Assembly: GCA_052035175.1 (NCBI GenBank)
Contig: JBPOHV010000001.1
Coordinates: forward strand, 366,773 to 430,772
DNA from: a candidate division WWE3 bacterium
Lineage (GTDB): Bacteria > Patescibacteriota > WWE3 > UBA101185 > UBA10185
Reading direction: 5' to 3'
DNA length: 64,000 bases
Positions within the stretch are counted from its first letter, which is position 1; each line of letters opens with the position of its first letter. A program made the position numbers and the translations under genes. Below, one piece after another: positions 19,797 through 46,284 of this stretch. Under the pieces are notes generated by a model, which had not been told where the DNA came from, did not search any database, and was given only the letters and a program-made list of their open reading frames with translations.

Positions 19797-19817
19797 AGGC
19801 TAAGCCGGGCCTAGCCC
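19797..19817. repeat. GC-rich palindromic element AGGCTAAGCC-GGG-CCTAGCCC
   Basis: Same family. Lies on the other side of the methyltransferase gene. Confidence 0.7.
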
Positions 19818-20122
19818 TTATACCGATACTTCTCGATATCAATATTAAAATCTTCATCTACGATTATACCTTCTTCAAGAAGTCTTTCTTTTTGGTCTAG
19901 TGCGTTATAGTGTGAACCTTTGATGCTTATGCGTCCGGAATTATTTATTATTCTCCACCAAGGTACTTCGGTTTTACCTTCTAGTTTGTTTAATATCCAC
20001 CCAACTTGGCGCGCAGCACGAGGTGAGTCTGCCAATAACGCAACTTGCCCATAGCTAGCGACTGTGCCAAAGGGAATTGAATTTACTATTTGAATTACTT
20101 TTTGTTTAAACGAAATCTGCAT
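19811..20122 (-). CDS. atl: Alkyltransferase-like protein (ATL; MGMT DNA-binding domain with Cys->Trp)
   Basis: 103 aa: SYGQVALLADSPRAARQVGWILN...VPWWRIINNSGRI. Corresponds to the PCHRV motif of O6-alkylguanine methyltransferases with Trp replacing the acceptor Cys, as in E. coli YbaZ/Atl (PWHRV). Confidence 0.75.
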   Translation of the reverse strand: MQISFKQKVIQIVNSIPFGTVASYGQVALLADSPRAARQVGWILNKLEGKTEVPWWRIINNSGRISIKGSHYNALDQKERLLEEGIIVDEDFNIDIEKYRYKG

Positions 20123-20184
20123 GATTAATTATATCCCACAACCGCAATACATTCGGGTTTTGTTTGTCTTGACTGTGGAACTCA

Positions 20185-20225
20185 AATGGTAGATATTGGA
20201 TATTACATGGTGACTATTGGTGAAA
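20185..20225 (+). promoter_or_regulatory. Putative MraZ operator: four TGG(T/A) direct repeats at 10-11 bp spacing upstream of mraZ
   Basis: TGGTAGATAT TGGATATTACA TGGTGACTAT TGGTGAAAT. The nearest TTGACT is at 20169-20174; exact promoter placement is unclear. Confidence 0.45.
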
Positions 20226-20245: not shown

Positions 20246-20656
20246 ATGAAAATGTTTTTGGGGGAATATAACCCAAATATTACAGAAGGCTCGCGAATAG
20301 CCCTACCAAAAAAAATCAGAGAGCAGGTCAGTGGTGATGTAGTCATTATGTCTAAAGGCTTTGAAAAGTGTATACACATCTACGATCGAGAAGATTGGAC
20401 AGTGCAAGCACAAAAGCAAATTGAAAATTTAAAAAACACGAGCAAAGTAAGCGATCTAGAAAGGTATTTATTTGCTTCAGCCGTAGAGGTAGCAATAGAC
20501 GCGCAAGGTAGAGTAGTCGTACCTCAACAGTTACTCGATTATGCTGGCGCAAAAAAGAATCTTGCTGTTGTTGGTGTAGGTGATCGCGTTGAAGTTTGGG
20601 ATAAAGAAACATGGTCAGCTTACTACGAAAAAATTTCTGCCAAATTGTCGGAATAG
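20246..20656 (+). CDS. mraZ: Transcriptional regulator MraZ
   Basis: Starts MFLGEYNPNI...IALPKKIRE. Two MraZ repeats. Precedes rsmH. Confidence 0.85.
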   Translation: MKMFLGEYNPNITEGSRIALPKKIREQVSGDVVIMSKGFEKCIHIYDREDWTVQAQKQIENLKNTSKVSDLERYLFASAVEVAIDAQGRVVVPQQLLDYAGAKKNLAVVGVGDRVEVWDKETWSAYYEKISAKLSE

Positions 20657-21553: not shown

Positions 21554-21875
21554 ATTTAAATCGCGAATATCTTCAGAATCTAAATACCCCAAAGTATTTG
21601 TGTTTTCACTTGGCTTTTTTATTCTGAGCCTAACTTTGCAAGTAATCTTCTCAAATTTTATTGCAGTTAAGTCTTCACAACTTACCGAACAATATGCAAA
21701 GAAAACAGCTTTAGAAAAAGAAATAGCTGCAATGGAATATCAAGATTCAGTTTTGTCTTCGCTTAGTAATGTAGAAGAAAGGGCTTTAGCCTTGGGATTT
21801 TCGACATTTAATCAAAACGTTATAGCTTTAAACATTTCTTTGCCCAATACTTTGGCTTCTGCTGGCCTAAGATGA
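21540..21875 (+). CDS. ftsL: Cell division protein FtsL-like (small bitopic membrane protein)
   Basis: Sits between rsmH and ftsI. Single TM (VFVFSLGFFILSLTLQVIF) followed by a coiled-coil region. Start set at ATG 21540, overlapping the rsmH stop. Confidence 0.5.
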   Translation: MKNIKFKSRISSESKYPKVFVFSLGFFILSLTLQVIFSNFIAVKSSQLTEQYAKKTALEKEIAAMEYQDSVLSSLSNVEERALALGFSTFNQNVIALNISLPNTLASAGLR

Positions 21876-31905: not shown

Positions 31906-32535
31906 TTAAGAATATCTTCTAACAACTCCAGTTACTTTACCTTGTACTTGTAAATTTTCAGCGTCTACATATATAGGTGCCATATTTTTGTTTGCGGGTT
32001 GCAACCTAATTTGACCATTTTTTTCTCTATAAAAAGTTTTGAGCGTAGCAAAGTTGTTATCGATCAAAGCTACTACTATATCGCCATCGTTGGCGGTTTC
32101 TTGTTGTTGTATAACAACATGATCTCCATCAAAGATACCCATATCAATCATGGAGTCACCTCTGACTTGTAACACATAACTTCTTCGATTTTTTGAAACC
32201 ATGTCGCTAGAGACCAAAACTGTTTCATATTGGTTTTCGTTTGCTTCAATAGGTTCTCCAGCTGCAATGAATCCCATTAGTGGAAGCTCTATCGAGTTAA
32301 GCGACGCGTTGTAAGACATGTCTGTAATTTCTATACCTCTTACAGCGCCATCATAGCGTTTGATAACGCCTTTCTTTTCTAAGGTTTGTAGGTGTTCGTG
32401 GACTGTAGCTAAGGAAGAAAGGCTCATAGCATCTGCGATTTCTCGAAGAGTAGGGGAGCTGTTGTTAACTTGTATATACTGAGAAATGTATTCTATTATT
32501 TGTTTTTGTTTTTTATATAAAGTTATAGGACTCAT
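31906..32535 (-). CDS. lexA: LexA repressor
   Basis: N-terminal wHTH (SPTLREIADAMSLSSLATVHEHLQTLEKKGVI) plus the S24 autopeptidase domain (Ser in VRGDSMIDMGIFDGD, Lys in ATLKTF). Confidence 0.9.
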   Translation of the reverse strand: MSPITLYKKQKQIIEYISQYIQVNNSSPTLREIADAMSLSSLATVHEHLQTLEKKGVIKRYDGAVRGIEITDMSYNASLNSIELPLMGFIAAGEPIEANENQYETVLVSSDMVSKNRRSYVLQVRGDSMIDMGIFDGDHVVIQQQETANDGDIVVALIDNNFATLKTFYREKNGQIRLQPANKNMAPIYVDAENLQVQGKVTGVVRRYS

Positions 32536-32547
32536 ATGTTATTAGAG

Positions 32548-32573
32548 TACCGAAAGTAACCCGAATATGTCAA
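32548..32573 (-). promoter_or_regulatory. lexA promoter with candidate SOS operator (ATATTCGGGTTAC-TTTCGG) between -35 TTGACA and the -10
   Basis: Minus-strand reading: TTGACATATTCGGGTTACTTTCGGTACTCTAAT...ATG. The TTCGGG core is shared with the uvrB and uvrA regions. Confidence 0.5.
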
Positions 32574-32588
32574 GGGGGAATTTTATAT

Positions 32589-32612
32589 AGGGCTAAGCCT
32601 GGTTAAACCCTA
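32589..32612. repeat. GC-rich palindromic element GGGCTAAGCC-TGG-TTAAACCC
   Basis: Same family as 19175 and 19797. Left boundary of the GC-rich cassette. Confidence 0.65.
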
Positions 32613-32687
32613 TATTAGTCTGATACAAATTGTACTATAATTGTACTATTTGGCTGTTTTGGCTTATAATTGCTTTAGCAATCTTCT

Positions 32688-32707
32688 GGGATGCGGAGGC
32701 GTCAAGG
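32688..32707. repeat. Left arm of 20-bp inverted repeat flanking the small secreted-protein ORF
   Basis: GGGATGCGGAGGCGTCAAGG. Its partner is CAAGGATGCCTCCGCATCCCC at 33058-33078 (18 of 20 complementary). Confidence 0.65.
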
Positions 32708-32722
32708 AAAAGGAGGTTTGAT

Positions 32723-33046
32723 ATGAAATTCATTAAGGGTGCAGTTTTTGCACTCTTTTTAATTCTCATAGCTGGGATGGCGGTGCAAGCCGCTGCCCAG
32801 CCTGCACGCGATAGCGTGCAAATCACACTCGCCAGCGGTGTCGCTGGTGAGATCACTGAAAAAACTGTGAGCTGCGGAAAAGTGCAGCTTACTTTTTTTT
32901 CAGACAATACACTTTTCGCCCCTGGAGTACGGGGCGAAAGAGGAAAGCTGATTTTCGAAGGGGGAATTGAACTTACGGTCACCGTCCAAAACTTGGACGG
33001 TGGTATAAAGTACACTGCGACCTCAGTCGGGTGTACTTTTAATTAA
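32723..33046 (+). CDS. Small secreted protein (signal peptide, two Cys), GC-rich cassette gene
   Basis: Strong RBS AAGGAGG 6 nt upstream of the ATG. Signal peptide MKFIKGAVFALFLILIAGMAVQAAAQ. The ORF is flanked by a 20-bp inverted repeat. Confidence 0.5.
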   Translation: MKFIKGAVFALFLILIAGMAVQAAAQPARDSVQITLASGVAGEITEKTVSCGKVQLTFFSDNTLFAPGVRGERGKLIFEGGIELTVTVQNLDGGIKYTATSVGCTFN

Positions 33047-33057
33047 GTTTCAAATCA

Positions 33058-33078
33058 CAAGGATGCCTCCGCATCCCC
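33058..33078. repeat. Right arm of the inverted repeat flanking the small secreted-protein ORF
   Basis: See 32688-32707. Confidence 0.65.
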
Positions 33079-33091
33079 CTTCGTACTAATA

Positions 33092-33111
33092 GGGTTTAAC
33101 CAGGTTTAACC
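33092..33111. repeat. GC-rich palindromic element GGGTTTAACC-AGG-TTTAACC (reverse orientation of 32589 copy)
   Basis: Near reverse-complement of 32591-32610. Confidence 0.6.
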
Positions 33112-33190
33112 TTTTAATCTTATTATCCAATTTATGCTAATCATTGCTACTAGCGTATGCTATTAGAAGTAAACATAGGTAGTTGTGCGA

Positions 33191-33213
33191 CAGGCTTAGC
33201 CTGGCCTAGCCCT
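33191..33213. repeat. GC-rich palindromic element AGGCTTAGCC-TGG-CCTAGCCC
   Basis: Same family. Right boundary, just upstream of uvrB. Confidence 0.65.
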
Positions 33214-33227
33214 TAGGTCATATGTTA

Positions 33228-33250
33228 GAATGTTCGGGATATGTTCGATA
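33228..33250 (+). promoter_or_regulatory. Candidate SOS operator at uvrB: GAATGTTCGGGATATGTTCGATA, overlapping -10 TAGAAT and the start codon
   Basis: TTCGGG core plus a second GTTCG half 11 bp downstream. TAGAAT at 33226-33231. Confidence 0.45.
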
Positions 33251-35316
33251 TTTTTTCATCTTATTCACCAACAGGAGATCAGCCAACGGCAATAGACCAG
33301 CTTACTAAAGGAGTACTTGGTGGTGTTAAAAACCAAACATTATTAGGAGTAACCGGTAGCGGTAAAACATTTACAATAGCAAACGTTATAAAAAATGTTT
33401 CAAAACCTACACTTATACTTTCACACAATAAAACTTTGGCTGCACAGCTTTATCAAGAGTTCAGAGAATTTTTTCCGAATAATGCAGTTGAATACTTTGT
33501 AAGCTATTATGACTATTATCAGCCAGAAAGTTATATCCCATCTACAGATACTTATATAGAAAAAGACGCAGATATAAACGACATGATTGATCGACTTAGG
33601 CTGTCTGCGACTACATCGTTGATGACGCGCAAAGACGTTATTGTAATTTCTTCAGTTTCTTGCATTTATAATCTTGGTTCACCTGCAGAATATTCAAAAA
33701 TGGCTATCGAAGTACGTAAAGGTATGAAGATACGTGCTGTCGATTTACTCAAAAGACTTTCACAAATATATTACGAACGTAATGAGTTTGAGTTTAAGCG
33801 CGGTACATATCGTGTGCGCGGTGATGTCATAGATATATTTCCAGCATATGTAGAGTATGCAGTGCGGTTGGAAATATTTGATGATATTTTGGTAAATGCT
33901 TCATTCTTTGATCCTTTGACTGGTGACGCGTTAAATACTGTAGGTGCTCCAAGTACAAGACAAGGCAGCCATACTCGGTCTGTTACTCAGGATGAAAAAG
34001 ATTATGCTCTGCATCGTTTGAATGAAAGTGGGCTTATTTTAATATATCCAGCCAAACACTATATTGCTGCAGAAGATAGGCGAGAATCGGCAATTGAACA
34101 AATTAAATCTGATTTAGCTTTACGCTTACAAGACTTGAAGCAGCAAGGAAGAAGCATCGAAGCTTATCGCCTTGAGCAAAGAACAAATTATGATTTGGAA
34201 ATGATGGAAGAAATAGGTTACTGCAAAGGCATTGAAAACTATTCTAGATATTTCGACGGACGAAACCCTGGTGATACACCTTATTCTTTGTTGGAGTTCT
34301 TTCCAAAAGATTATTTGTTAGTAATAGATGAGTCACATATAACTGTACCTCAAGTAAGAGGTATGTATAACGGTGATCGTTCGCGTAAGCAAACACTTAT
34401 AGATTATGGGTTTAGACTGCCATCGGCTTTGGATAACAGGCCACTAAACTTCACAGAATTTATGTCAAAGCTCAATCAAGCTATATATATAAGCGCGACT
34501 CCTTCAGAATGGGAGTTGAGTATGTCTGCAGGACATGTAGCTGAGCAATTGATTAGGCCAACAGGTATAGTTGACCCGGAAGTTACTATTTTGCCAACTC
34601 AAAATCAGATACACGATTTGTTAGATCGCATTAAAGCAAAAGTTGCAAATAATCAAAGAGTTTTGGTGACTACTTTGACTAAAAAAATGTCTGAAGAGTT
34701 GGCATCTTTTTTGACTGAAAAAGGTATTAAGGTTACTTATTTGCATTCTGATGTAGAAACTTTGGAACGGACAAATATTTTGGATGATTTGCGAAAAGGT
34801 GAGTATGACGTTTTGGTAGGCATAAACCTTTTGCGCGAAGGTTTGGATTTACCAGAAGTTTCTTTGGTAGCAATTTTGGATGCTGATAAAGAAGGCTTCT
34901 TGAGATCTGATACTTCCTTGATTCAAACTATGGGACGTGCGGCGCGCCACTTGCAAGGCGAAGTCGTGATGTATGCTGATAGTGTAACTGGCAGTATGCA
35001 GCGTGCGCTCGACGAAGTGGCGCGCCGCCGTGAAATCCAAAGAGCATACAACGAAAAACACCATATATCTCCAACTCAAATCTTCAAACCAATACGCCAA
35101 AAGTTAATCGATGAATATGTCGAGGAAATTGTTAATAAAGCTAAGAAATTTGAGACCGATGTAGATTATAAATCTATGCCACCAAAAGAAGTAAATAAAG
35201 AGGTAAAACGCATGGAAGCCGAAATGAAACTTGAAGCCGAGAATTTAAACTTTGAACGCGCAGCTGCTTTGCGAGATAAAATAAGAGAAATTAAAGGCTA
35301 TTTATCCAAGCAATAG
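33241..35316 (+). CDS. uvrB: Excinuclease ABC subunit B
   Basis: N-terminus SPTGDQPTAIDQL, Walker A GVTGSGKT, helicase motifs, C-terminal UVR domain (AENLNFERAAALRDKI). Confidence 0.95.
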   Translation: MFDIFSSYSPTGDQPTAIDQLTKGVLGGVKNQTLLGVTGSGKTFTIANVIKNVSKPTLILSHNKTLAAQLYQEFREFFPNNAVEYFVSYYDYYQPESYIPSTDTYIEKDADINDMIDRLRLSATTSLMTRKDVIVISSVSCIYNLGSPAEYSKMAIEVRKGMKIRAVDLLKRLSQIYYERNEFEFKRGTYRVRGDVIDIFPAYVEYAVRLEIFDDILVNASFFDPLTGDALNTVGAPSTRQGSHTRSVTQDEKDYALHRLNESGLILIYPAKHYIAAEDRRESAIEQIKSDLALRLQDLKQQGRSIEAYRLEQRTNYDLEMMEEIGYCKGIENYSRYFDGRNPGDTPYSLLEFFPKDYLLVIDESHITVPQVRGMYNGDRSRKQTLIDYGFRLPSALDNRPLNFTEFMSKLNQAIYISATPSEWELSMSAGHVAEQLIRPTGIVDPEVTILPTQNQIHDLLDRIKAKVANNQRVLVTTLTKKMSEELASFLTEKGIKVTYLHSDVETLERTNILDDLRKGEYDVLVGINLLREGLDLPEVSLVAILDADKEGFLRSDTSLIQTMGRAARHLQGEVVMYADSVTGSMQRALDEVARRREIQRAYNEKHHISPTQIFKPIRQKLIDEYVEEIVNKAKKFETDVDYKSMPPKEVNKEVKRMEAEMKLEAENLNFERAAALRDKIREIKGYLSKQ

Positions 35317-35337
35317 TATTATTAGTATAATAATCAT

Positions 35338-36741
35338 ATGCCTAACCACACAAAGTATGGTGATCTTTTTGGAGATAGTATGCCGGCAGAGGCGCATAGA
35401 CCTGCCAGATATTATTTTGCGCATGGTCAGCCGGTAGAGCGTTGGGAGGCTGAGCTGTTGGTTACTCCAGAAGTTCTAGATATTACGCAGAAGTTAGCTG
35501 GTGATGGCTCTGCAGTTTTAGCTGGAGGTACTGGCTTATATGCTACCTATGGCGGAAATATTCATAAAAGAGATTACGATATTACAGTTGCTGATTTACC
35601 TTTAACTGCCAACTCCACATTAGCATCATTAGGTTATGCGTATGTTTCTGGTGATTATGCTCAGCGATACAAAAAGGGGAATGTAACAATAGATATATTA
35701 AGTGCTAAACGTGTAGCTGATGCTAGTATACATGAGTTAACTAGCTTAAAATCCCAGTTACTTCAATTATCACTGCCAGGGGATGTAATGTCTAAAGCAC
35801 TTGAGCAAATTGTACGTTCAGAAAAGCTGTTGCTATCCAATGTGCTCGAATATCAAATGCGTGCGAATTGTTTTTTCAATATCGAGTTATTGGGGTATGG
35901 AGTTGATAATGCAGGGGCTATTTCTGTATTTGATGCAGGGCACATCCTTCAGGATCCAAATGAGATACACAGCTTGGATCATGCTTATAAAGCTGGCACG
36001 TTGCCGCATGCTCCTAGATACACCGTAAATACGTATTCAACGCGTAATACATTCACACAATTAATTACTGCTACAGCTGGTTCTGAACACCCACTAATGT
36101 TCACCTCAGATATGATTATGTGGTACCTAGAGAATTATGGTAGAAGCATGAGTAAATGTGCAAAAAATGATGCATCTCTTCCTTACAGTCAGTCGGCGTA
36201 TATCGACTATACTACTATTATAGATCTTGTTTTAAAAGGTGACGCACCATTTAAAGTTTCTAAGGATCTTTTAGATAAATTGCAAACTCGAGGTTTTTCA
36301 TCTTTAGAGAGTTTTGTACGTGCAAATATATGTCGCCATTTTGTGCAAGCTTTTATTTATAACCCAGAAAAGGCTATAGAGTTTTTATTTACTGAAGGGG
36401 ATATTGTTGCACCAGCACTTATGCCTAGTGTAGCATTAGGTGAAGGTGATCATAGAAGGACTACACGTGTAAGCATGTTGAGTTTGGCGGAAAAGGCCTT
36501 TCCTAAAAAGAAAGTTTGGGCGAGAGTTCCTGAATTTAGCTCCTCGCATCATCTTCAAACTGAAAAGTATGTACACTTACCGCAAAGTGTAGAACAGGCA
36601 CTGGCATTTTTATTGGTTGGGTTAAATGCAGGTGATTCTGTTGATGAGCTTTTAGCTTATTGGGCATCGATTGAAGGATTTAAAATGAATATAGATAAAA
36701 CTGAAATTGAAAAAGCTATGGTAGCTTTTAAAAAGTTATAA
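35338..36741 (+). CDS. hypothetical protein, possible nucleotidyltransferase-fold domain
   Basis: Segment LAGGTGLYATYGGNIHKRDYDITVAD fits the minimal pol-beta NTase pattern [GS]-x(9-13)-DhDhhh. The remaining ~380 aa have no recognisable motif. Locally GC-richer. Confidence 0.45.
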   Translation: MPNHTKYGDLFGDSMPAEAHRPARYYFAHGQPVERWEAELLVTPEVLDITQKLAGDGSAVLAGGTGLYATYGGNIHKRDYDITVADLPLTANSTLASLGYAYVSGDYAQRYKKGNVTIDILSAKRVADASIHELTSLKSQLLQLSLPGDVMSKALEQIVRSEKLLLSNVLEYQMRANCFFNIELLGYGVDNAGAISVFDAGHILQDPNEIHSLDHAYKAGTLPHAPRYTVNTYSTRNTFTQLITATAGSEHPLMFTSDMIMWYLENYGRSMSKCAKNDASLPYSQSAYIDYTTIIDLVLKGDAPFKVSKDLLDKLQTRGFSSLESFVRANICRHFVQAFIYNPEKAIEFLFTEGDIVAPALMPSVALGEGDHRRTTRVSMLSLAEKAFPKKKVWARVPEFSSSHHLQTEKYVHLPQSVEQALAFLLVGLNAGDSVDELLAYWASIEGFKMNIDKTEIEKAMVAFKKL

Positions 36742-36743
36742 TT

Positions 36744-37982
36744 ATGAAGCCTGTAGTATCTAATGCTTTACTCGAGCGTTTTTCTACTATGCTTATCGAT
36801 CAGGCTAGAGATTTGGATACCAGTATCACAACTTTTCGTGGTAGTTGGGTAACCTCTATTTTGATGTATTTAGCCAGAGAGCGCCGACATACGTATCTTA
36901 AGAATGCACAGGTAATTTTGCCTATCAGTGTTAAAAGCTTATATACAGATAAGAATGCAACGTTTGGTAATACATATAATTATTACAAAGAATTCTATAA
37001 AAATTTGACTATATCAACTCACACTGACTTAGAGAGTTTAATTTATGCACTTACGCATGGCGCTGATTACAAAGTTACGATATTGGCTAACGGGTTTGGT
37101 ACTCTTTTACAAACTAACAACACACATTTCAGTGCAGCAATCGCTTTAAGAGAGTTGAAAAAAATAAATCCTAAAAATGTGAGCTTTATCTTTGTTAATA
37201 CTGTAGAAATTTATCCTACCGATATACAACAAATCCCTGGATTGATGTCTAGCTTCTTACAAAACATGCGTTGGCAGCAAGACTTTGTTATTGATAAGGA
37301 AAGTGTAGCTAATATTTTATGTAATGAAACAGGTAAGCGAGAGTATGAAGAGAACGATTTATTAATATCAAAAGTATTTGAATACGCATATAATGATCCT
37401 TCTGTAGTGCAAATCATAGGAAAAAATCTATTAATTGACGCAGACTTTGAGAGGCAACTTTTGTCTGCTGGTAGCATTGCTGACCTATATGAAGTGATAG
37501 GTAAAGATAAGCTTGATTCACGTTATCGCCAGATTTTGAGCAGCCTAAAAAAAGAATCAAGGCAAAGTTTGCAGTATTATCTTGAATCTGACAATTCTGC
37601 GCATTTACCGACGATTTACTTGTTAAAAACAAATTTACTTGTTAGGAGTCATGATAGCTATAAGGCAATGAACCCTCTTTTTGATCACTATTTAAAGTCT
37701 GTAGACTTTCACTCAGCAGACATTTATGAATCAAGCGTTGATAAGCTAACGCGTGCATTAACTGGTCAAGAGCAGCAACTCTTTAATCTGTTACAAGTTA
37801 AACATGGCAAATTTGCTACCAAAGACGAAATCGCTCAAACTATTTGGGGAGATACTTGGCAAGATGTGTATAGTGACTGGGCAATTGATAAGCTTGTCTC
37901 TACACTACGCAAAAAACTTGTAGACAATAATTATGAAAAGACAATAAAAGCAGTGAGAAACAAAGGTATTATGTTAGTTTGA
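36744..37982 (+). CDS. hypothetical protein with C-terminal OmpR/PhoB-type winged-helix DNA-binding domain
   Basis: C-terminus LTGQEQQLFNLL...TKDEIAQTIWGD...LVSTLRKKL...KAVRNKGIMLV matches the Trans_reg_C pattern. The N-terminal ~320 aa are unknown. Confidence 0.5.
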   Translation: MKPVVSNALLERFSTMLIDQARDLDTSITTFRGSWVTSILMYLARERRHTYLKNAQVILPISVKSLYTDKNATFGNTYNYYKEFYKNLTISTHTDLESLIYALTHGADYKVTILANGFGTLLQTNNTHFSAAIALRELKKINPKNVSFIFVNTVEIYPTDIQQIPGLMSSFLQNMRWQQDFVIDKESVANILCNETGKREYEENDLLISKVFEYAYNDPSVVQIIGKNLLIDADFERQLLSAGSIADLYEVIGKDKLDSRYRQILSSLKKESRQSLQYYLESDNSAHLPTIYLLKTNLLVRSHDSYKAMNPLFDHYLKSVDFHSADIYESSVDKLTRALTGQEQQLFNLLQVKHGKFATKDEIAQTIWGDTWQDVYSDWAIDKLVSTLRKKLVDNNYEKTIKAVRNKGIMLV

Positions 37983-38034
37983 ACTTGGTTAGCTAAAAAA
38001 TCCTAGTAAGAAAAGAAATACACCTGCATCTATC

Positions 38035-38058
38035 AAGCAGGTTTTTATAATAAAGTCG
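38035..38058 (+). terminator. Rho-independent terminator
   Basis: CCTGC-ATCTATCAA-GCAGG followed by TTTTTAT, directly after the 36744..37982 gene. Confidence 0.6.
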
Positions 38059-38167
38059 CTAAAATGTTTATTGGCTTCAAGCTATTTACTCATTTTCGCT
38101 CAGCCGCCACGCCTTGCTATAGGATAACATCTTTTCTAATAATCTTATGTTCAAAAGGAGTTAGCAA

Positions 38168-38467
38168 ATGAAAACCGGCTGGTTTTTTGCAATAATCTTC
38201 GCAGTAGTGGCTTTAATCATAGCGACACATCTAGCTTATCAACAGCCATATCTGCAAACCCTGGATCTTTATCCGGGGTCTCACGTCAAATTAAATAATG
38301 TGGATTTTTTCATGGATGAAGAAACTGGTTTTTCTGCTTCGGCTTCATGCTTGGGATCTCTGAAGCTTTATGGTGACCAGAAAGATCATTATGGATTTAC
38401 GTGTAACAACATCGACTTTGATGTTGTGTACAGCGAATCTGTAACAAAGATTTCTTGGGCTCCCTAG
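38168..38467 (+). CDS. small membrane-anchored protein (island gene 1)
   Basis: RBS AAAGGAG 7 nt upstream of the ATG. N-terminal TM WFFAIIFAVVALIIATHLAY. 99 aa. Confidence 0.4.
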   Translation: MKTGWFFAIIFAVVALIIATHLAYQQPYLQTLDLYPGSHVKLNNVDFFMDEETGFSASASCLGSLKLYGDQKDHYGFTCNNIDFDVVYSESVTKISWAP

Positions 38468-38473
38468 GAAAAG

Positions 38474-38542
38474 AGCGGGTTTGGACTCGTAGATACAGAT
38501 TAGCTTTGGCTAGTTTTTGTTTACGGTCCGACCCGCTTTTTT
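38474..38542 (+). terminator. Long-loop rho-independent terminator
   Basis: AGCGGGT...(inner GGAC..GTCC stem)...ACCCGC followed by TTTTTT. Confidence 0.5.
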
Positions 38543-38778
38543 AGTTGTGTTAGTAAGCATTTTTCTACTCAGTTTTACTCAAGCCGATATAACCTATAGC
38601 TCGTATCATATCTTCATACAATTGAATAGAACTTTGACATCCAAATACTTTTCACTAGAACTCTAGAAGGAGGCTTTTTAGGCTTAACTGCGCTGTCGAG
38701 CTTATAAAGCCTTCTTTTATGAGAAGGTTCCCCAATGTGGGGAAATGCTAATAATCGCCGCAGTTGTGGCCAAGTCAA

Positions 38779-39076
38779 GGAGCTTGATATGTCTCGAATC
38801 AATGAACTTTTCACAAATCCAGTTGTAACCTTTTTGTGGTTTTTAATCCCGACCGGGGTACTCTGGTTCTTTGGGGTTGTGGCCCTTGGTATGGGTAGCA
38901 GTCTTGGAGATCTCTTGTTCGGAGCTGTCTTTGGCGGCGCCGTAACTGCATTCTTTTTTACAGTGTCTATGGAGGCGAAAAGTCGTGGGGAGCCCGGTTG
39001 GTTTTACACCTTCTTGATCTTTGGGCTCATTTCCATTGCAATTCCCATCACTGCTTTCATTAAAGCAGCTTATTAG
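38779..39076 (+). CDS. small 3-TM membrane protein (island gene 2)
   Basis: RBS AAGGAG 7 nt upstream of ATG 38779. Hydrophobic throughout. Preceded by the hairpin TTCCCCAATGTGGGGAA. Confidence 0.45.
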
Positions 39077-39085
39077 GCTGTACCT

Positions 39086-39148
39086 AGGTGGGCGAGGTGC
39101 TCATGGATAAAGATCTTAAGATCTCACACCATGGCACCTCGCTCACTA
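39086..39148 (+). repeat. Structured hairpin repeat, copy 1 (GGTGGGCGAGGTGC...GCACCTCGCTCAC)
   Basis: Imperfect stem of about 17 bp with a roughly 22-nt loop containing the GATCTTAAGATC palindrome. Homologous to 39999-40059, with compensatory substitutions between the copies. Confidence 0.7.
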
Positions 39149-39264
39149 AATCAATTACTAGAAAAAAGTTTGTACTAGATTTCAAAAAATGAAAGTTAGT
39201 ATGAGCTTTCTTCTGGAAAAATCTAGATGAAAGGTATTATGTTGCGTTGAGTAAGGAGTTAGTA

Positions 39265-39972
39265 ATGTCTCAGAAAATCTTGTCTTTTGGTCTCGCCCTG
39301 TTCGTGGCCTTTATGGCCGCTTGCAGCGGAGGTGGAGAACCGCAGTCTAGTGTAGTAGTAACTGCATATGATTGCAAAGGCGATGTCTTGGATCTCCAAA
39401 ATCGAGACCAGTTTATCCTAAACGGTCAAGAAGTTTTATTTGCGGATCAAGGATTCGCAAATTATCAATTTCTTGACACAGACTGGAACCAGCTCGCTGC
39501 TGGTCCAGATAAAGTTCCGTCAGATTCAATTCATTTAGATGATGAAAAAGTCTCGTTGGCCGGATCTGACTGGAAAATCACAAACATAGGTACCACTGTA
39601 GAGGGGAAAAGCAGAATATGCTTTGAGGAATGGAACGTGAATTACATTCCTCCAACAGTGACGCCAACGCCAACCCCGGTTGGGGAAATTGGTCTGGCGC
39701 TAACCCCAACTCCAGCTTATTCCTGTCCCCAAGGCGAATTCAACTATGTTGAAATCGAAGCTGGGAATCCCCATTACTCTTCTCTTGATGGTGATACCAC
39801 TGTGGTTATCGAAAAAAATACAAGTGGTTTTTCCATTGAGGTGGTCGGAGAGTTTTACGTCAGTGGAGACGTAAGTATTGGTTATGGAGAAGAAGCCATA
39901 ATTGGCGATTACCGATTCCACATCATTCGTGGTTATGAGGACGCATTATGTGTCCTTGTGACTCCTCCTTAA
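39265..39972 (+). CDS. Putative lipoprotein (island gene 3)
   Basis: RBS AAGGAGTTAGTA then ATG. Signal plus lipobox-like FVAFMAAC|SGG. Pro/Thr linker PPTVTPTPTPVGEIGLALTPTP. Confidence 0.5.
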   Translation: MSQKILSFGLALFVAFMAACSGGGEPQSSVVVTAYDCKGDVLDLQNRDQFILNGQEVLFADQGFANYQFLDTDWNQLAAGPDKVPSDSIHLDDEKVSLAGSDWKITNIGTTVEGKSRICFEEWNVNYIPPTVTPTPTPVGEIGLALTPTPAYSCPQGEFNYVEIEAGNPHYSSLDGDTTVVIEKNTSGFSIEVVGEFYVSGDVSIGYGEEAIIGDYRFHIIRGYEDALCVLVTPP

Positions 39973-39998
39973 CCTAAGGAGTAAAACTAAGGAAATCA

Positions 39999-40059
39999 AG
40001 GTGGGCGAGATGCTCGTGAAGAAGATCGCATGATCAGATATCACGGCATCCGCCCACTA
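39999..40059 (+). repeat. Structured hairpin repeat, copy 2 (GGTGGGCGAGATGC...GCATCCGCCCAC)
   Basis: Same architecture as 39086-39148. The GGTGC/GCACC to GATGC/GCATC and CATGG/CCATG to CGTG/CACG changes keep the pairing intact. Confidence 0.7.
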
Positions 40060-40153
40060 AACCAAGAAGAAAGTTTCTATCAGCCTTTGGATCTCTGAAA
40101 GCAAAGATTGGTAGAAGCCTTCTGCTAAGAAGGTAAACCACAAGGAGGCAGTA

Positions 40154-40603
40154 ATGTTTTTTGTAGCGATATTGCGTAAGTTTTGGTGGATCTTGCCTGT
40201 GGCAATGGTGATTATGTTAATCGCTATGGCTATGGGAGTAGGAGATCCCGCTCCGGTTTTACCAGAGACAGAAACACCCGCCAATGAAGTTAGTGCATTA
40301 TGTACTGATTTCTTCGGCTGGTCCGTTGTGGATAGTACTGACTTTGTCAGCGCTGAATATGTGAATGGCGACATTTACGTAGAGTGGACCAATAGTGGTC
40401 CGAATCCACGCATTATGGGGGTGAACTTTTATGGCTGGATCGTCAAAGATCCACAGCCTGGTGTACATCTGGAAATTCCTCAGGGTATTCTGCTCCTCAG
40501 TGACGATGGACAAATATTGTCCATCTTACCTACAGGGCAGGATCCAGTGGTGATTGAAATAGGCACAACCTGCCTGCAAAAGCCACTGCCTACCAGAGGA
40601 TAA
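40154..40603 (+). CDS. small exported protein (island gene 4)
   Basis: RBS AAGGAGG 5 nt upstream of the ATG. N-terminal TM/signal WWILPVAMVIMLIAMAMG. 149 aa. Confidence 0.45.
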   Translation: MFFVAILRKFWWILPVAMVIMLIAMAMGVGDPAPVLPETETPANEVSALCTDFFGWSVVDSTDFVSAEYVNGDIYVEWTNSGPNPRIMGVNFYGWIVKDPQPGVHLEIPQGILLLSDDGQILSILPTGQDPVVIEIGTTCLQKPLPTRG

Positions 40604-40606
40604 ATT

Positions 40607-40671
40607 GAGCGGTAGATCGCTGTAGATAGTCCAAATCAGGACGCAATCTCTACGCGATCTACCGCTTTTTC
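40607..40671 (+). terminator. Rho-independent terminator with large structured loop
   Basis: GAGCGGTAGATCGC...GCGATCTACCGC followed by TTTTTC. Perfect 13-bp stem. Confidence 0.65.
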
Positions 40672-40786
40672 AGTTTTATACTAATGACTCATCAAATGAT
40701 ACTAGTTCTGCTTAACTCAGTTTCACTCATGCCCTCATACCTCATAGTGCTAGTATGCCGCTATTAATCTGATTAAAGGAGATGCC

Positions 40787-40990
40787 ATGTTAGTACTAAC
40801 TAAGAATACCGAACTTACCTTGTTTGGTATAAAAATTACGTTTGTAAATAACAGTTTGGATTTTTCAGCTGCATCCGAACTGGATGTTTTGTATGTCCCA
40901 GATTCCAATCCAAGAATTGTAAATGTTTGTTATCGGAATCGATCAATTTTTGTTGTGCAGCTACACGACATGCTTATTATTTCATGGTAG
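40787..40990 (+). CDS. small hypothetical protein (island gene 5, 67 aa)
   Basis: RBS AAAGGAG 5 nt upstream of the ATG. No TM helix. Confidence 0.3.
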   Translation: MLVLTKNTELTLFGIKITFVNNSLDFSAASELDVLYVPDSNPRIVNVCYRNRSIFVVQLHDMLIISW

Positions 40991-41048
40991 TTACCTTCAA
41001 TACCCAACAGTTTGGCATAAAGACCAAACTACAAATAAGGAGAATCTG

Positions 41049-41303
41049 ATGAAACGCTTTATGAAAAACCCGTTGATAACCTGGCTCGTACTTCTTGTTT
41101 TACTAACACCATTTTGGTGGTTAGCAAATGGAGGGGGCCGTGAGATAGATCTACCGCTAGCTCTGTCGGGGGTTAATGCATACATATTAATGTATGCATT
41201 GATTACTCGTGAAAAGGGTGACGCGCTCTTTTTGTCATTAGTCTATGCCGTTGCAGGACTTGTGATGCTAGGGTTTTCTTGTTATCTGATTATTATAGGG
41301 TAG
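41049..41303 (+). CDS. small 2-3 TM membrane protein (island gene 6)
   Basis: RBS AAGGAG 6 nt upstream of ATG 41049. Begins MKRFMKNPLITWLVLLVLLTPFWW. Confidence 0.4.
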   Translation: MKRFMKNPLITWLVLLVLLTPFWWLANGGGREIDLPLALSGVNAYILMYALITREKGDALFLSLVYAVAGLVMLGFSCYLIIIG

Positions 41304-41310
41304 AAAGAAA

Positions 41311-41373
41311 AAGGCGGTAGGTTTGCTGAGTACATTAATCAATGATTGATGCGCTCGCGATCTACCGCTTTTT
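41311..41373. terminator. Bidirectional rho-independent terminator sharing its 3' arm with the 40607-40671 terminator
   Basis: GAAAAAGGCGGTAG...GCGATCTACCGC followed by TTTTTC. Sits between convergent genes. The 18-nt 3' arm is identical to the 40654-40671 arm. Confidence 0.6.
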
Positions 41374-41379
41374 CTTTTC

Positions 41380-42783
41380 TTATTTATAGTAATCGTTTAA
41401 TTGACTATATGGCACTATCTTCATATCTGGGTTTTGTGTTAGCAAGTCTTTTTGTAACTGCAGATCTAACGTATCATCTCTGAATATCACAGCTTTTATA
41501 TCTTTACTAGAAACATGCATATTTCTTGGTTGTTTCGTATAACCTTTACTTGGATGCAACACGCCTTCTACGTATACACCATTGCCCTTCATTGCGCCTG
41601 CTTCAGGCGTTCCTGGTAAATATGTATAGCTCATGTGTTTTTCTATTTCAAATACTTCTCGGAATGCATGTACCATTCTTGCATCAACAAGTGAAAGCAT
41701 TTTGATTAAAGTTCCATCTGCAAATTCATGTCGTCCTATTGGTTCTCCTCGATCACCATATGTATATTCAACTCTTAAGGCTAGTGCTTCGTTGAAATGA
41801 ACAAAGATAGGTCTTTTTTTGCCCCATTCGTAGCGCTCGCCAGTTTTTTTTGAAATAAGTGCCCCGTACAATACAGAGTAAGGTTCGTTATTAACGGTTG
41901 CTTCTAATTGGGCTGGTGCGGTTGCATTCGAAAAAATAATAGTGTCGTATATTTCTAGTATCTGTTGTTCTAGTTCGTCTACTTGCATTGTGTCTATTAA
42001 TTCCGCTGCTTGAGAGTCCACTATCTCAATAGGTGAATCGCCAAGAGTGTGTTTTAATAATTCAATTGCTTCCCTCTGTTCGTTGGAATCAGCAATATTG
42101 TTGTATATTGTTTCTACCGCTTTTTCTATTTCGAGTTTTATTTTGTTTTGTATTTTTTCGCGTGTTAAAAACTTGCCAACTTTTTCAATAACTGCTATAG
42201 CCGCATTTTCACTTGTTTGCTTATTAATAGCAGTAGTTATGTTTTTTTCTGTAAATAGTGGTTCTTCTTGTATATTCTCAACTAGATGTATAAACTGAAT
42301 AACGGTTTGATTAGGCGCAGAAAAGTTTTCTAAGAAAAGTTCGTTTTTAGCCTCATCACAATCAACATCAGCGATGTTTACGCCTTTAACCTGTATTTGT
42401 ACACCACTCTCAGACTTAACCAGGCTATATTCATCTGGTAATCTTTTTTTTAATATTTCGATATCAGTATTTAATTTGGCAAATAGTATGGAGTGATCGC
42501 TTGCATTTGTTTTAAAAGAAATAGACATGAGTTCATTATCAGGAGTTTCCATTCTTATACTAGGTCCTGCTCCTAGTGTATCGATATATACTTTACACGC
42601 TTTAACCAAAGTGTCTGCGTGTGCAGTTTCATCTTCTATTACTTGTGTAAAATTCGCATACCTAGCAATTTTTTTGGTGTATGTTTCTAATAGTTCCAAC
42701 TTTAAATTTTCTTGGCTTGTTTGAACCTCATCAGCAGTGTTTTCAATATGAACTTCTTTTTCACTGGTTATATCATCAAGCAT
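41380..42783 (-). CDS. hypothetical protein (467 aa, acidic N-terminal half)
   Basis: Long ORF with no recognisable catalytic motif. Co-directional with the upstream 94-aa gene and separated from it by 8 bp. Confidence 0.5.
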   Translation of the reverse strand: MLDDITSEKEVHIENTADEVQTSQENLKLELLETYTKKIARYANFTQVIEDETAHADTLVKACKVYIDTLGAGPSIRMETPDNELMSISFKTNASDHSILFAKLNTDIEILKKRLPDEYSLVKSESGVQIQVKGVNIADVDCDEAKNELFLENFSAPNQTVIQFIHLVENIQEEPLFTEKNITTAINKQTSENAAIAVIEKVGKFLTREKIQNKIKLEIEKAVETIYNNIADSNEQREAIELLKHTLGDSPIEIVDSQAAELIDTMQVDELEQQILEIYDTIIFSNATAPAQLEATVNNEPYSVLYGALISKKTGERYEWGKKRPIFVHFNEALALRVEYTYGDRGEPIGRHEFADGTLIKMLSLVDARMVHAFREVFEIEKHMSYTYLPGTPEAGAMKGNGVYVEGVLHPSKGYTKQPRNMHVSSKDIKAVIFRDDTLDLQLQKDLLTQNPDMKIVPYSQLNDYYK

Positions 42784-42790
42784 GTAAGGT

Positions 42791-43075
42791 TTATGCTTCT
42801 CCTTGTACTAGTTTTCTCCAGTCAGTTTTTGATGGAGCAGCCGTTGGGGTTGCTTGTTTTTCATCTTTAGTGGGCTCTTCTGTTAAACCTTCAAGTTTTA
42901 TGTCAGCTGCTTCTGCTGTTTCGGCTTGGACTTCTGGTGTTCCTTGACGCATCATAGCTGCTATTCTGTTCATCGTTTTTGAGGTAATTATCGTTTCTGG
43001 TTGTTTTTCATTTGGTGTTTCATTTGTACCTGTAACTTCCGAAAGTCTTTCTAATGGCATATATTTTCCTTTCAA
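42791..43075 (-). CDS. small acidic hypothetical protein (94 aa)
   Basis: First gene of the putative two-gene operon. Low-complexity Glu/Thr/Ala/Pro-rich sequence. Confidence 0.4.
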   Translation of the reverse strand: MKGKYMPLERLSEVTGTNETPNEKQPETIITSKTMNRIAAMMRQGTPEVQAETAEAADIKLEGLTEEPTKDEKQATPTAAPSKTDWRKLVQGEA

Positions 43076-43135
43076 TTTAATATATGTAAATATGATATTC
43101 TATTTTGGTGACTTCTTCTATGAGTGAAACTGACT

Positions 43136-43155
43136 TCACAAACCCGAACATATAC
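43136..43155. promoter_or_regulatory. Candidate SOS operator (CCCGAACATAT / ATATGTTCGGGTTTG) in the uvrA divergent intergenic region
   Basis: Same ATGTTCGGGTT core as lexA and uvrB. About 65 bp upstream of the minus-strand 94-aa gene and about 120 bp upstream of uvrA. Confidence 0.4.
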
Positions 43156-43266
43156 CGTATACTGTTTTGGTCACATTTATTGCGGCAGCATTCTTTTCGT
43201 CACTAAGTCCTCGCTTTGCTGCGGAATGGTTCCTCAATAATGTTGCCGCTAATAAATTTAACTAAT

Positions 43267-46200
43267 ATGAACAAACCAAACAATTCAGCCTTAACACATA
43301 TAATCGTCAAAGGTGCTCGCCAGCACAATTTGAAAAATATCGACCTAGAAATTCCAAAAAATAAAATGGTCATATTCACAGGAGTTTCTGGTAGTGGTAA
43401 GTCATCTATGGCAATGGATACTATTTATGCAGAAGGTCAAAGACGTTATGTAGAAAGTTTGAGTTCATACGCACGCCAATTCTTGGGAGTTATGGATAAG
43501 CCCGACGTCGATAGTATCGAAGGTTTATCCCCAGCAATTGCGATCGATCAAAAAACTACTTCAAAAAACCCTCGCTCTACAGTAGGCACTATTACAGAAG
43601 TTTATGATTTCATGCGTTTACTTTATGCAAGAGTGGGGCATCCGCATTGTCCAAATTGCGGACGCGAAGTCCAACGACAGTCGTCTGAAGAAATTGTAAA
43701 TCAAATATTTTCATTAGCTGAAAGTGATACAAATTTTAAATCTGAGCGTGGTTCGCGTTTTATTATTTATTCACCTATAGTTAGAGATCGAAAAGGTGAG
43801 TTTTCTTCGCTTTTTGATAATTTAAAAAAGCAAGGCGTAGTGCGTGCGCGCATTGATGGCAAAGTTTATGAACTCTCTGAGCAACTTACTTTAATTAAAA
43901 CAAATAAACATACTATAGACGCATTTTTATCAAGACATATTATAAGCAAAAAAAGACTGGCAGACGATGAAAAGAATATACGTTCTACTATCTTTCAAAG
44001 TATCGAAACTGCTTTACGCATGAGTAACGGCCTGGCGTTGGTTTCGTTTATCAAAGATAAAGACTTTGATTTTTCTGAAAATCCCAAAGAAGTCGAAGAT
44101 CACTTATTTTCAGAAAACTTTGCTTGTCCATTTTGCAATATATCTTTGCCAGATATAGAACCACGAAGTTTTTCTTTTAATTCTCCTCATGGTGCATGCG
44201 CCGAGTGCGATGGTTTGGGCACAAAGTTGGTTATAGATGAATCCACAGTTTTAAATAAATCTTTAACAATTAAAGAAGGCGCAATATTACCTTGGAATAA
44301 ATTGTTTGAGCACAATTCGTGGACGCAACTTGTTATTGACGCAGTCGCAAAAGAGCACAATATACCTTTGAATATCGAAGTTTCCAAAATGACAAAAGAA
44401 CATATGGATATTGTTTTGTATGGTACTGGTGATGTGAAGCATAAGATCAATTACACAAACAAAGAAGGTGACATGCACAATTTTAATGCTAGATATGAAG
44501 GAGTTATTCCAAATTTATTACGCAGACACAAAGAAACTCAATCTGACTATGTACGAAACGAAATTGAAAAGTATATGGTTTTGTATCCGTGCAGTGTGTG
44601 TAACGGTGACAGACTAAATAAGCATGCGCTTTCTGTAGTTATAGATTCACAAAATATTGCGCAGATCTCGAATTTATCAATAGAACACGCCGTCACTTGG
44701 TTTAATGAAATTACCACAAAGTTTAATTTACGCGAGCAAACTATAGCCGAGCCCATAATGAAAGAAATTAATTACCGTATGAAGTTTTTGCTAGACGTTG
44801 GTCTGGGATATTTAACTTTGAGTAGAGCTTCTAGCCATTTATCTGGTGGAGAAGCTCAACGCATACGGTTAGCTTCGCAAATTGGTTCTGGTTTATCTGG
44901 TGTTTTATATGTTTTAGACGAGCCATCTATTGGACTACATCAAAGAGATCAGGGCAAGCTGATCAAAACTTTGCACCATTTAAGAGATTTGGGAAATACT
45001 GTTTTGGTAGTAGAACACGATGAAGAAACAATGTTACAAAGTGATTATATTTTTGATTTTGGTCCAGGCGCGGGTGAACATGGTGGAAAAGTTATTGCCG
45101 AGGGTACGCCAGCACAACTGATGAAAGATGCAAATTCACTGACTGGAAAGTATTTATCAAGGCGCTTGGTCGTGGGTCAAACTGATGTAATATCAAAGAA
45201 AAAAAGTAAAAAGAAATTTGAATTTGATGATGGTTTTATAGACGCAGAAATTTCTGTAAAAGATGTAAAAGGAAGATCACTATCTATCATTGGGGCTTCA
45301 GGTCGTAACTTAAAAAATATTGATGTAGAGATTCCATTAGGAAAGCTCGTTTGTGTAACAGGTGTATCTGGAAGCGGTAAGTCTACATTGATTATGGATA
45401 CATTACATAGAGCTTTGCGCCAAAGATTTGCTTTAAAAAATGAAGAGCGACCAGAGCCATTTAGAGATATGACAGGGTTGGAACATATCGATAAAGTAAT
45501 CGCAATTGATCAAACGCCAATTGGTCGTACACCAAAATCTAATCCAGCAACTTATACAAAAGTATTTGATTTGATACGCGAGTTATTTGCACAAACTCAA
45601 GACTCTAAAATCCGTGGTTACAAAGCAGGACGATTTAGTTTTAATGTAAAAGGTGGTAGGTGTGAAGCTTGCAGTGGTGAAGGCCAAGTCAAAATTGAAA
45701 TGCAATTTATGCCAGATGTTTATATTAATTGCGAAGTATGTGAAGGCAAAAGATATAACAAAGAAGCTTTGGAAATACATTTTAGAGGCAAAAATATCGC
45801 AGATGTTTTGGATATGACTATTGAAGAGGCATTAGAGTTTTTTGCAAATCATGAAAATATTAGAAGAAAAATACAAGTGTTATACGATGTAGGTTTGAGT
45901 TATATAAGACTTGGTCAACCAGCTCCAACGTTATCTGGAGGAGAAGCTCAAAGAGTTAAGTTAGCTTTAGAGTTGGCAAAAAGATCTTTTGGTTCGACTT
46001 TGTACATTTTGGATGAACCTACTACCGGTCTACATTTTGCTGATCTCGAAAATTTGATAACTATTATGAAAATATTGACTCGTCGCGGTAATACTGTGTT
46101 AGTTATAGAACATAATTTGGATATAATCGCCAATAGCGATTGGATTATCGATCTCGGTCCCGAAGGCGGAGATAAAGGTGGTGAACTAGTTTTTTCAGGT

Positions 46201-46284
46201 GACTTAAAAGCATTGCTAAGTTGTAAATACTCACATACAGCAACAGCCCTACGAGAAATACAACAAAAACCTTTGACGCAATAA
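43267..46284 (+). CDS. uvrA: Excinuclease ABC subunit A
   Basis: Two ABC ATPase modules (GVSGSGKSS and GVSGSGKSTL), zinc-finger Cys clusters (CPNCGRE, CPFCN, CEACSGEG, CEVCEGKRYN), C-terminal SHTATALREI. Start set at ATG 43267. Confidence 0.95.
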   Translation: MNKPNNSALTHIIVKGARQHNLKNIDLEIPKNKMVIFTGVSGSGKSSMAMDTIYAEGQRRYVESLSSYARQFLGVMDKPDVDSIEGLSPAIAIDQKTTSKNPRSTVGTITEVYDFMRLLYARVGHPHCPNCGREVQRQSSEEIVNQIFSLAESDTNFKSERGSRFIIYSPIVRDRKGEFSSLFDNLKKQGVVRARIDGKVYELSEQLTLIKTNKHTIDAFLSRHIISKKRLADDEKNIRSTIFQSIETALRMSNGLALVSFIKDKDFDFSENPKEVEDHLFSENFACPFCNISLPDIEPRSFSFNSPHGACAECDGLGTKLVIDESTVLNKSLTIKEGAILPWNKLFEHNSWTQLVIDAVAKEHNIPLNIEVSKMTKEHMDIVLYGTGDVKHKINYTNKEGDMHNFNARYEGVIPNLLRRHKETQSDYVRNEIEKYMVLYPCSVCNGDRLNKHALSVVIDSQNIAQISNLSIEHAVTWFNEITTKFNLREQTIAEPIMKEINYRMKFLLDVGLGYLTLSRASSHLSGGEAQRIRLASQIGSGLSGVLYVLDEPSIGLHQRDQGKLIKTLHHLRDLGNTVLVVEHDEETMLQSDYIFDFGPGAGEHGGKVIAEGTPAQLMKDANSLTGKYLSRRLVVGQTDVISKKKSKKKFEFDDGFIDAEISVKDVKGRSLSIIGASGRNLKNIDVEIPLGKLVCVTGVSGSGKSTLIMDTLHRALRQRFALKNEERPEPFRDMTGLEHIDKVIAIDQTPIGRTPKSNPATYTKVFDLIRELFAQTQDSKIRGYKAGRFSFNVKGGRCEACSGEGQVKIEMQFMPDVYINCEVCEGKRYNKEALEIHFRGKNIADVLDMTIEEALEFFANHENIRRKIQVLYDVGLSYIRLGQPAPTLSGGEAQRVKLALELAKRSFGSTLYILDEPTTGLHFADLENLITIMKILTRRGNTVLVIEHNLDIIANSDWIIDLGPEGGDKGGELVFSGDLKALLSCKYSHTATALREIQQKPLTQ

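Follow-up and report, generated by a model that had tools for sequence, protein, structure and literature searches.

Do the lexA, uvrB and uvrA genes of an uncultured bacterium share an operator for the SOS repressor LexA, and if so, what is its unit? The question is raised by a 64,000-nucleotide stretch of DNA (the window; G+C approximately 36%), in which a short core recurs in the control regions of all three genes. The original prediction took this core, the 9-mer ATRTTCGGG, for a candidate SOS operator that would define the LexA box of its lineage. Our analysis bears out the reading as a shared SOS operator of direct-repeat type but gives it a different unit: the element is very probably an SOS box, in a WWE3-like host of the Patescibacteria, and has the form of a non-palindromic direct repeat at which LexA would block RNA polymerase. 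The genes, the promoter elements as assigned from the sequence, and the predicted boxes are as follows.

31906-32535, minus strand: lexA, 209 aa (NCBIfam equivalog TIGR00498, 201 bits)
32544-32549, minus strand: lexA -10 hexamer TACTCT, 8 nt before the ATG at 32535-32533 (TAnTAT in relatives)
32550-32567, minus strand: predicted LexA box at lexA, TATTCGGGTTACTTTCGG, TTCG-N7-TTCGG (16.4 bits, matrix of foreign lexA sites)
32568-32573, minus strand: lexA -35 hexamer TTGACA, invariant in 38 orthologous promoters
33223-33231, plus strand: uvrB extended -10 TGtTAGAAT, with no recognisable -35 and the ATG 9 nt later
33231-33248, plus strand: predicted LexA box at uvrB, TGTTCGGGATATGTTCGA (16.1 bits)
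33241-35316, plus strand: uvrB (NCBIfam equivalog NF003673, 1006 bits)
43135-43163, plus strand: uvrA promoter TTCACA-17 nt-TATACT (promoter scan, 10/12 matches)
43144-43161, minus strand: predicted LexA box at uvrA, TATACGGTATATGTTCGG, TACG-N7-TTCGG (15.9 bits; register fixed by the matrix)
43267-46284, plus strand: uvrA (NCBIfam equivalog NF001503, 1389 bits; in-frame alternative starts at 43240 and 43216)

A direct-repeat box in the lexA and uvrA promoters

The three sequences on which the original prediction was built are present in the window. The minus strand upstream of lexA reads TTGACATATTCGGGTTACTTTCGGTACTCT, the uvrB region, with its ATG at 33241, reads TGTTAGAATGTTCGGGATATGTTCGAT, and the reverse complement at uvrA reads GTATACGGTATATGTTCGGGTTTGTG. 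The uvrA string that had been quoted, ATATGTTCGGGTTTG, was correct as sequence but placed 4 nt off, being the reverse complement of 43139-43153 and not of 43143-43157. ATRTTCGGG occurs three times in the window, exactly at the lexA, uvrB and uvrA sites, where 0.45 occurrences are expected and 1 of 100 shuffles reaches 3. The second half that was said to lie 11 bp downstream at lexA and uvrB is also there, since TTCGGG-N5-TTCG has exact matches at these two sites and nowhere else in the window. The 9-mer itself did not hold up as the motif: what is conserved is TTCG-N7-TTYG(G/T), a direct repeat whose period is 11 bp, and the ATR prefix belongs to the -35 flank at lexA, to the -10 at uvrB and to the inter-repeat spacer at uvrA. 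Short cores are at background in the window (bare TTCGGG is found 10 times versus 12 expected), so the significance of the boxes rests on their location and on evidence from other genomes.

This evidence begins with lexA. Patescibacteria lexA loci, taken at one genome per species, gave 38 orthologous promoters, 17 from WWE3-like genomes (67-76% identity) and 21 from Microgenomates-like genomes (47-55%), and all 38 have the form TTGACA-nn-TT(C/T)G-N7-TT(C/T)G(G/T)-TAnnnT. The box is TTCG-N7-TTCGG in WWE3 and TTCGGGTTTTRTTTGG in Microgenomates, and the broader Patescibacteria consensus is TTCGGGTTTTnTTYGK. The window has the same architecture as its relatives, the box occupying all 18 nt that separate the -35 from the -10; the -10 escapes the promoter scan, matching TATAAT at 3 of 6 bases. 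A count matrix of 108 distinct sites has near-invariant positions T1 T2 C3 G4 G5 ... T12 T13 Y14 G15 K16 and is devoid of dyad symmetry.

We then scanned both strands of the window (128 kb) with 18-nt matrices built from foreign lexA sites only, with the window, the -35 and the -10 left out. The WWE3 matrix places the lexA, uvrB and uvrA boxes at ranks 2 to 4 in the window, the next match reaching 11.7 bits. At 14 bits or more, 4 matches were seen versus 0.48 expected under a second-order Markov null, and 1 of 400 simulations reached 4. For orthologous promoters we took the best score in the interval from -70 to +40 and compared it with that of 115 control gene starts in the same loci, which have a median of -0.9 bits and a 95th percentile of 7.5 bits. 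In 445 kb of lexA neighbourhoods, the inspected matches outside the lexA, uvrB and uvrA control regions were few and all within called ORFs.

At uvrA the box is in reverse orientation, lies within the promoter spacer and covers the first 4 nt of the -10. The matrix register makes TTCGGG the second half of the repeat (TACG-N7-TTCGG), and not the first half-site for which it had been taken. The promoter is conserved as TTCACAAACCCGAACnnnnaCCGTAnAAT in eight loci (L001-L004, L007, L010, L062 and L068), and the uvrA genes of WWE3-like relatives show TTCACA-AACCCGAACnnnnaCCG-TAnAAT, which is the same promoter with the same reverse-oriented box. The box is found in 8 of 9 uvrA promoters of these relatives, with a median best score of 13.8 bits (n = 9; Mann-Whitney p = 6e-7 versus the 115 controls); the orthologous promoters score 12.6-15.6 bits. 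It persists where a co-directional penicillin-binding-protein gene lies upstream. Because the box is kept despite a different upstream neighbour, it belongs to uvrA's own promoter, and the divergent gene, in whose intergenic region the original prediction had set it, is incidental.

The start of uvrA is most likely the ATG at 43267; the UvrA profile match begins at residue 27 of the ORF 43216-46284 (plus strand), and the N-terminus SALTH aligns with that in locus L068. From this start the window has a uvrA leader of approximately 100 nt (43168-43266, plus strand), for which a long hairpin is predicted (18-bp stem; -28 kcal/mol, z = -3.2) that covers the in-frame ATG at 43240. The hairpin has no Rfam match, and Rfam and tRNA scans of the window as a whole gave no match. 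Relatives have no leader at uvrA, their ATG lying 9 nt past the -10.

The leaders of lexA vary as well. The lexA and uvrB mRNAs of the window would be leaderless or nearly so, with 8-9 nt from the -10 to the ATG and no Shine-Dalgarno sequence, and the same short distance is seen in many relatives (L017-L037, L070). In other WWE3 relatives the lexA leader is 70-90 nt long and contains GGAG. Those with long leaders (L001, L003-L007, L016, L068 and L153) carry a second, reverse-oriented box, ACCAAAGAAAAACCGTAA, approximately 15-35 nt past the lexA -10, so that lexA there would have two operators where the window lexA has one. In five Microgenomates loci (L023, L025, L026, L030 and L033) the lexA promoter is preceded, at a distance of approximately 60-80 bp, by a second promoter-plus-half-box, TTGACAnnTTCGGGTTTTTAG, after which comes a short stretch of conserved sequence (GCGCAAAAC.CGAAT).

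The uvrB box and the lexA-uvrB gap

In almost all loci of relatives uvrB stands back to back with lexA. WWE3-like relatives have a uvrB extended -10, TGnTAAAAT, 6 nt before the ATG, which predicts a leaderless mRNA, and a box, CCAAAnAAAACCCAAA (the reverse complement of TTTGGGTTTTnTTTGG), just upstream of this -10, unless the lexA box is shared instead. The box is present in 20 of 20 uvrB promoters of these relatives, with a median best score of 19.8 bits (n = 20; Mann-Whitney p = 6e-13 versus controls).

The window departs from this arrangement. Its uvrB box reaches from the final base of the -10 across the predicted transcription start and into codon 3 of uvrB, a position unmatched in any relative, whose boxes always lie upstream of the -10 or are shared with lexA and never lie downstream. 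The lexA-uvrB gap is approximately 700 bp, versus 70-170 bp in relatives, and no box remains at the ancestral upstream position. Among closer relatives sought for comparison, the best UvrB match reaches just 76% identity, and each of the four loci examined keeps its box upstream, as in the ancestral arrangement. Given the back-to-back arrangement of the two genes in relatives, the extra segment looks like an insertion that split the shared control region. It contains a Shine-Dalgarno-led ORF (32723-33046, 107 aa) with a signal-peptide-like N-terminus and no Pfam match, bracketed by a 28-nt inverted repeat (32586-32613 and 33089-33116) and an inner one of 16 nt; the repeat unit occurs a third time at 33193-33213.

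One alternative is that the lexA and uvrA sites, and a further one at mraZ, are genuine and the uvrB site is a chance match, uvrB having lost LexA control when approximately 600 bp with a small gene were inserted. In its favour, no relative has a uvrB box downstream of the -10, the inverted repeats do bracket the intervening ORF, and the second half-site lies inside codons 2-3 (Phe-Asp), where coding constraint could yield TTCGA. Against this stands the score, because matches of at least 15.9 bits are expected approximately 0.135 times in 128,000 positions, or approximately 1e-4 times in the approximately 120 positions at one promoter. Codons 2-3 are TTC-GAT in the window versus TTT-AAR in most relatives, a difference that creates the half-site and fits renewed selection for a box at uvrB, and a site over the predicted transcription start is in the classic position for a repressor. 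We regard a chance match at uvrB as unlikely.

A further box at mraZ

A box of the same type lies elsewhere in the window, at the head of a division and cell-wall (dcw) cluster.

20150-20167, plus strand: further box, CATTCGGGTTTTGTTTGT (25.6 bits with the Microgenomates-type lexA matrix; 0 matches expected at 25 bits or more)
20169-20197, plus strand: predicted mraZ promoter TTGACT-17 nt-GATATT
20246-20656, plus strand: mraZ (Pfam PF02381, 104 bits), first gene of the mraZ-rsmH-ftsL-ftsI division/cell-wall cluster

This box, which the original prediction had not listed, ends 1 nt before the mraZ -35, and 44 of 69 usable metagenomic mraZ loci (78 were fetched) have it in the same position, with one other match in 308 kb. 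Its conservation suggests direct SOS control of the mraZ-rsmH-ftsL-ftsI cluster. Over and past the mraZ -10 the window has a separate series of GGTGA-type repeats (approximately 20188-20225, plus strand; GGTAG/GGATA/GGTGA/GGTGA) with a 10-bp period, conserved in relatives as atGGTGAnnnatGGTGA. These resemble known GTGG/TGGG-type MraZ boxes and are probably MraZ autoregulatory boxes.

The gene divergent from mraZ (19811-20122, minus strand, 103 aa) has only the DNA-binding domain of MGMT, with PWWR in place of the catalytic PCHR, and its product is predicted to be an alkyltransferase-like (ATL) protein. Proteins of the ATL class hand alkyl lesions to nucleotide excision repair. The ATL-like gene shares the intergenic region with the mraZ box, and we considered it as the owner of the box at 20150; no ATL homologue is found beside mraZ in relatives, and the conserved association is with mraZ.

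It is conceivable, though doubtful, that LexA of the Patescibacteria is wired directly to the dcw operon through the mraZ box, kept 1 nt ahead of the -35 in most lineages, giving these minimal cells an SOS division checkpoint that needs no dedicated inhibitor of the SulA/YneA type. On a smaller scale, and with the same low confidence, the window would show operator turnover at uvrB following the insertion. If the checkpoint were real, LexA might act as an activator from its position at mraZ, in which case its cleavage after DNA damage would lower dcw expression; alternatively, LexA might act as a repressor, and its removal would induce the division regulator MraZ. The mraZ link may already be contained in a 2017 study of the SOS response in Patescibacteria.

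LexA as the probable binding protein, and related systems

The genome encodes a canonical LexA. The best homologues of the window LexA are from WWE3/Patescibacteria (72-79% identity; 70-79% for LexA and UvrB together, in metagenome-assembled genomes), and the gene order flanking lexA is common to the window and locus L068. Judged by these homologues and this gene order, the host belongs to the Patescibacteria (candidate phyla radiation) and is WWE3-like. In translation, the autocleavage apparatus of LexA is intact, with an Ala-Gly site in FIAAGEPI, the serine in GDSM and the lysine in TLKTF; the AAG site, Ser128 and Lys166 are invariant among the LexAs compared. The closest solved relative is Thermotoga LexA (3k2z). 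The recognition helix SLATVHEH is likewise invariant, among LexAs that are only 46-78% identical overall, and a DNA specificity shared across clades fits this invariance.

We infer that LexA is the protein that binds the box, and that its binding represses. LexA autoregulation is nearly universal. A canonical self-cleaving LexA would bind the box and hinder RNA polymerase by promoter occlusion. At lexA it would fill the spacer between the -35 and the -10, giving autoregulation, and at uvrA it would fill the spacer in reverse orientation and overlap the -10. At uvrB it would cover the transcription start and the start codon of a leaderless, extended -10 promoter, and at mraZ, in the dcw operon, it would sit directly against the -35. 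After DNA damage, activated RecA would stimulate the self-cleavage of LexA and so free the promoters.

The operator could instead be real and be bound by another regulator, either MraZ or some further factor that co-regulates lexA, uvrA, uvrB and mraZ. The box is strictly conserved at mraZ, MraZ proteins are established to bind tandem repeats with a period of approximately 10 bp, and LexA has been assigned from sequence, by way of autoregulation logic and the content of the regulon. The mraZ promoters do, however, have their own conserved GGTGA repeats that look like known MraZ boxes. The box lies in the core of 38 of 38 lexA promoters, where an autoregulating LexA is expected, the recognition helix of LexA does not vary among the clades in which the box is found, and PMC7739468 cites work on the Patescibacteria LexA for recognition of a direct repeat. 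Taken together, these observations make a different regulator quite unlikely.

A second objection would take the sequence for a feature of the promoter itself, such as a spacer or UP-like element that polymerase or a sigma factor would recognise, insofar as it sits exactly in the -35/-10 spacer at lexA and uvrA and abuts the -35 at mraZ. With respect to the hexamers the same 16-mer takes up four different places, and it occurs in either orientation; control promoters in the same loci rarely carry the box (2 of 208 control ORF starts). Because position (within the spacer, across the -35, past the -10, ahead of the -35) and orientation vary across genes, the box behaves as a transcription-factor site, and we find a promoter feature very hard to credit. 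That the three 9-mers are alike by chance, which the background frequency of TTCGGG and TTCG-N7-TTCG in the window would allow, is in practice refuted by the independent matrix result and by conservation at orthologous promoters in dozens of genomes.

Returning to LexA as the binding protein, several observations weigh against it or against the reach of the motif. The assignment to LexA is made through autoregulation and regulon content, as noted above. No recA gene was found in the window, in the approximately 1 kb by which one locus extends it on the left, or in the 153 fetched loci. Strong sites were found in only 4 of 18 uvrA upstream regions of Microgenomates, indicating that regulon membership varies by lineage. 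The -10 of the window lexA, TACTCT, is weak, and TTCG-N7-TTCG is not enriched when the window is taken alone (2 matches versus 1.28 expected). The unmatched position of the uvrB box and the coding context of its second half-site belong here too. Finally, the WWE3 matrix yields at least one probable false positive: its top match, at 21685-21702 (minus strand; TCTTTGCATATTGTTCGG, 21.1 bits, 0.005 expected), lies inside an ftsL-like ORF without promoter context and is not conserved among the 69 mraZ-cluster loci. A match at 38505-38520 was also rejected as an operator, as it sits in a terminator hairpin. Viral contigs scanned for the pattern of lexA promoter plus box gave no match.

The comparison with known LexA boxes bears out one claim of the original prediction in full and another in part. 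The box is unlike the palindromic ones, as proposed: both the E. coli core CTGT-N8-ACAG and the Gram-positive core GAAC-N4-GTTC have 0 matches in the window. The proposed resemblance to the alphaproteobacterial box GTTC-N7-GTTC holds for the direct-repeat architecture, the 11-bp period and the TTC core, and the uvrB site, the only GTTC-N7-GTTC match in the window, agrees with it literally. It does not extend to the GTTC tetranucleotide, which is conserved in neither half. The invariant bases are TTCG/TTYG, with G following TTC in 106 of 108 sites and preceding it in 11 of 108 first halves and 30 of 108 second halves. The window LexA is also not alphaproteobacterial, its nearest homologues being from Patescibacteria; the likeness is one of architecture only and probably of independent origin, and the box would work in a similar way without being a member of that family. 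The Gram-positive/Thermotoga box CGAAC-N4-GTTCG is a palindrome, unlike the window box, which is without dyad symmetry; the half-site of the former, GTTCG, contains TTCG, and Thermotoga supplies the closest solved LexA. The shared TTCG may point to an inverted arrangement having become a direct one.

The closest known system comes from the same superphylum. PMC7739468 names Sanchez-Osuna, Barbe and Erill 2017 (Environ Microbiol 19:3465) among cases in which LexA has evolved recognition of a direct repeat. The claim that the present box would define the LexA box of the lineage thus comes late: going by that citation, a direct-repeat motif was already reported for Patescibacteria in 2017, and the window is a further instance of a mostly known system. 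To this system it adds one genome with the lineage-specific variant TTCG-N7-TTCGG and a relocated uvrB box. The regulon described for Patescibacteria is reportedly small and repair-centred, and its motif is said to have been validated by gel shift. At mraZ there is a parallel in gut Firmicutes, where LexA was shown by gel shift to bind an mraZ promoter (Cornish et al. 2014, PMC3998124). In both groups a LexA site, predicted in the Patescibacteria, lies upstream of mraZ; in the Firmicutes it is the palindromic Gram-positive motif, and in many Patescibacteria it is the direct-repeat box, fixed 1 nt before the -35.

The outcome for this uncultured, host-dependent group of bacteria is a cross-validated SOS operator model, which can be used for annotation and for regulon reconstruction in metagenome-assembled genomes. 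In the window genome the predicted LexA regulon would be small and centred on nucleotide excision repair, with lexA, uvrA and uvrB under its control. Beyond this confirmation, the one part that may interest a specialist is the rigidly placed box at mraZ and the dcw cluster, which would link DNA damage to cell division.

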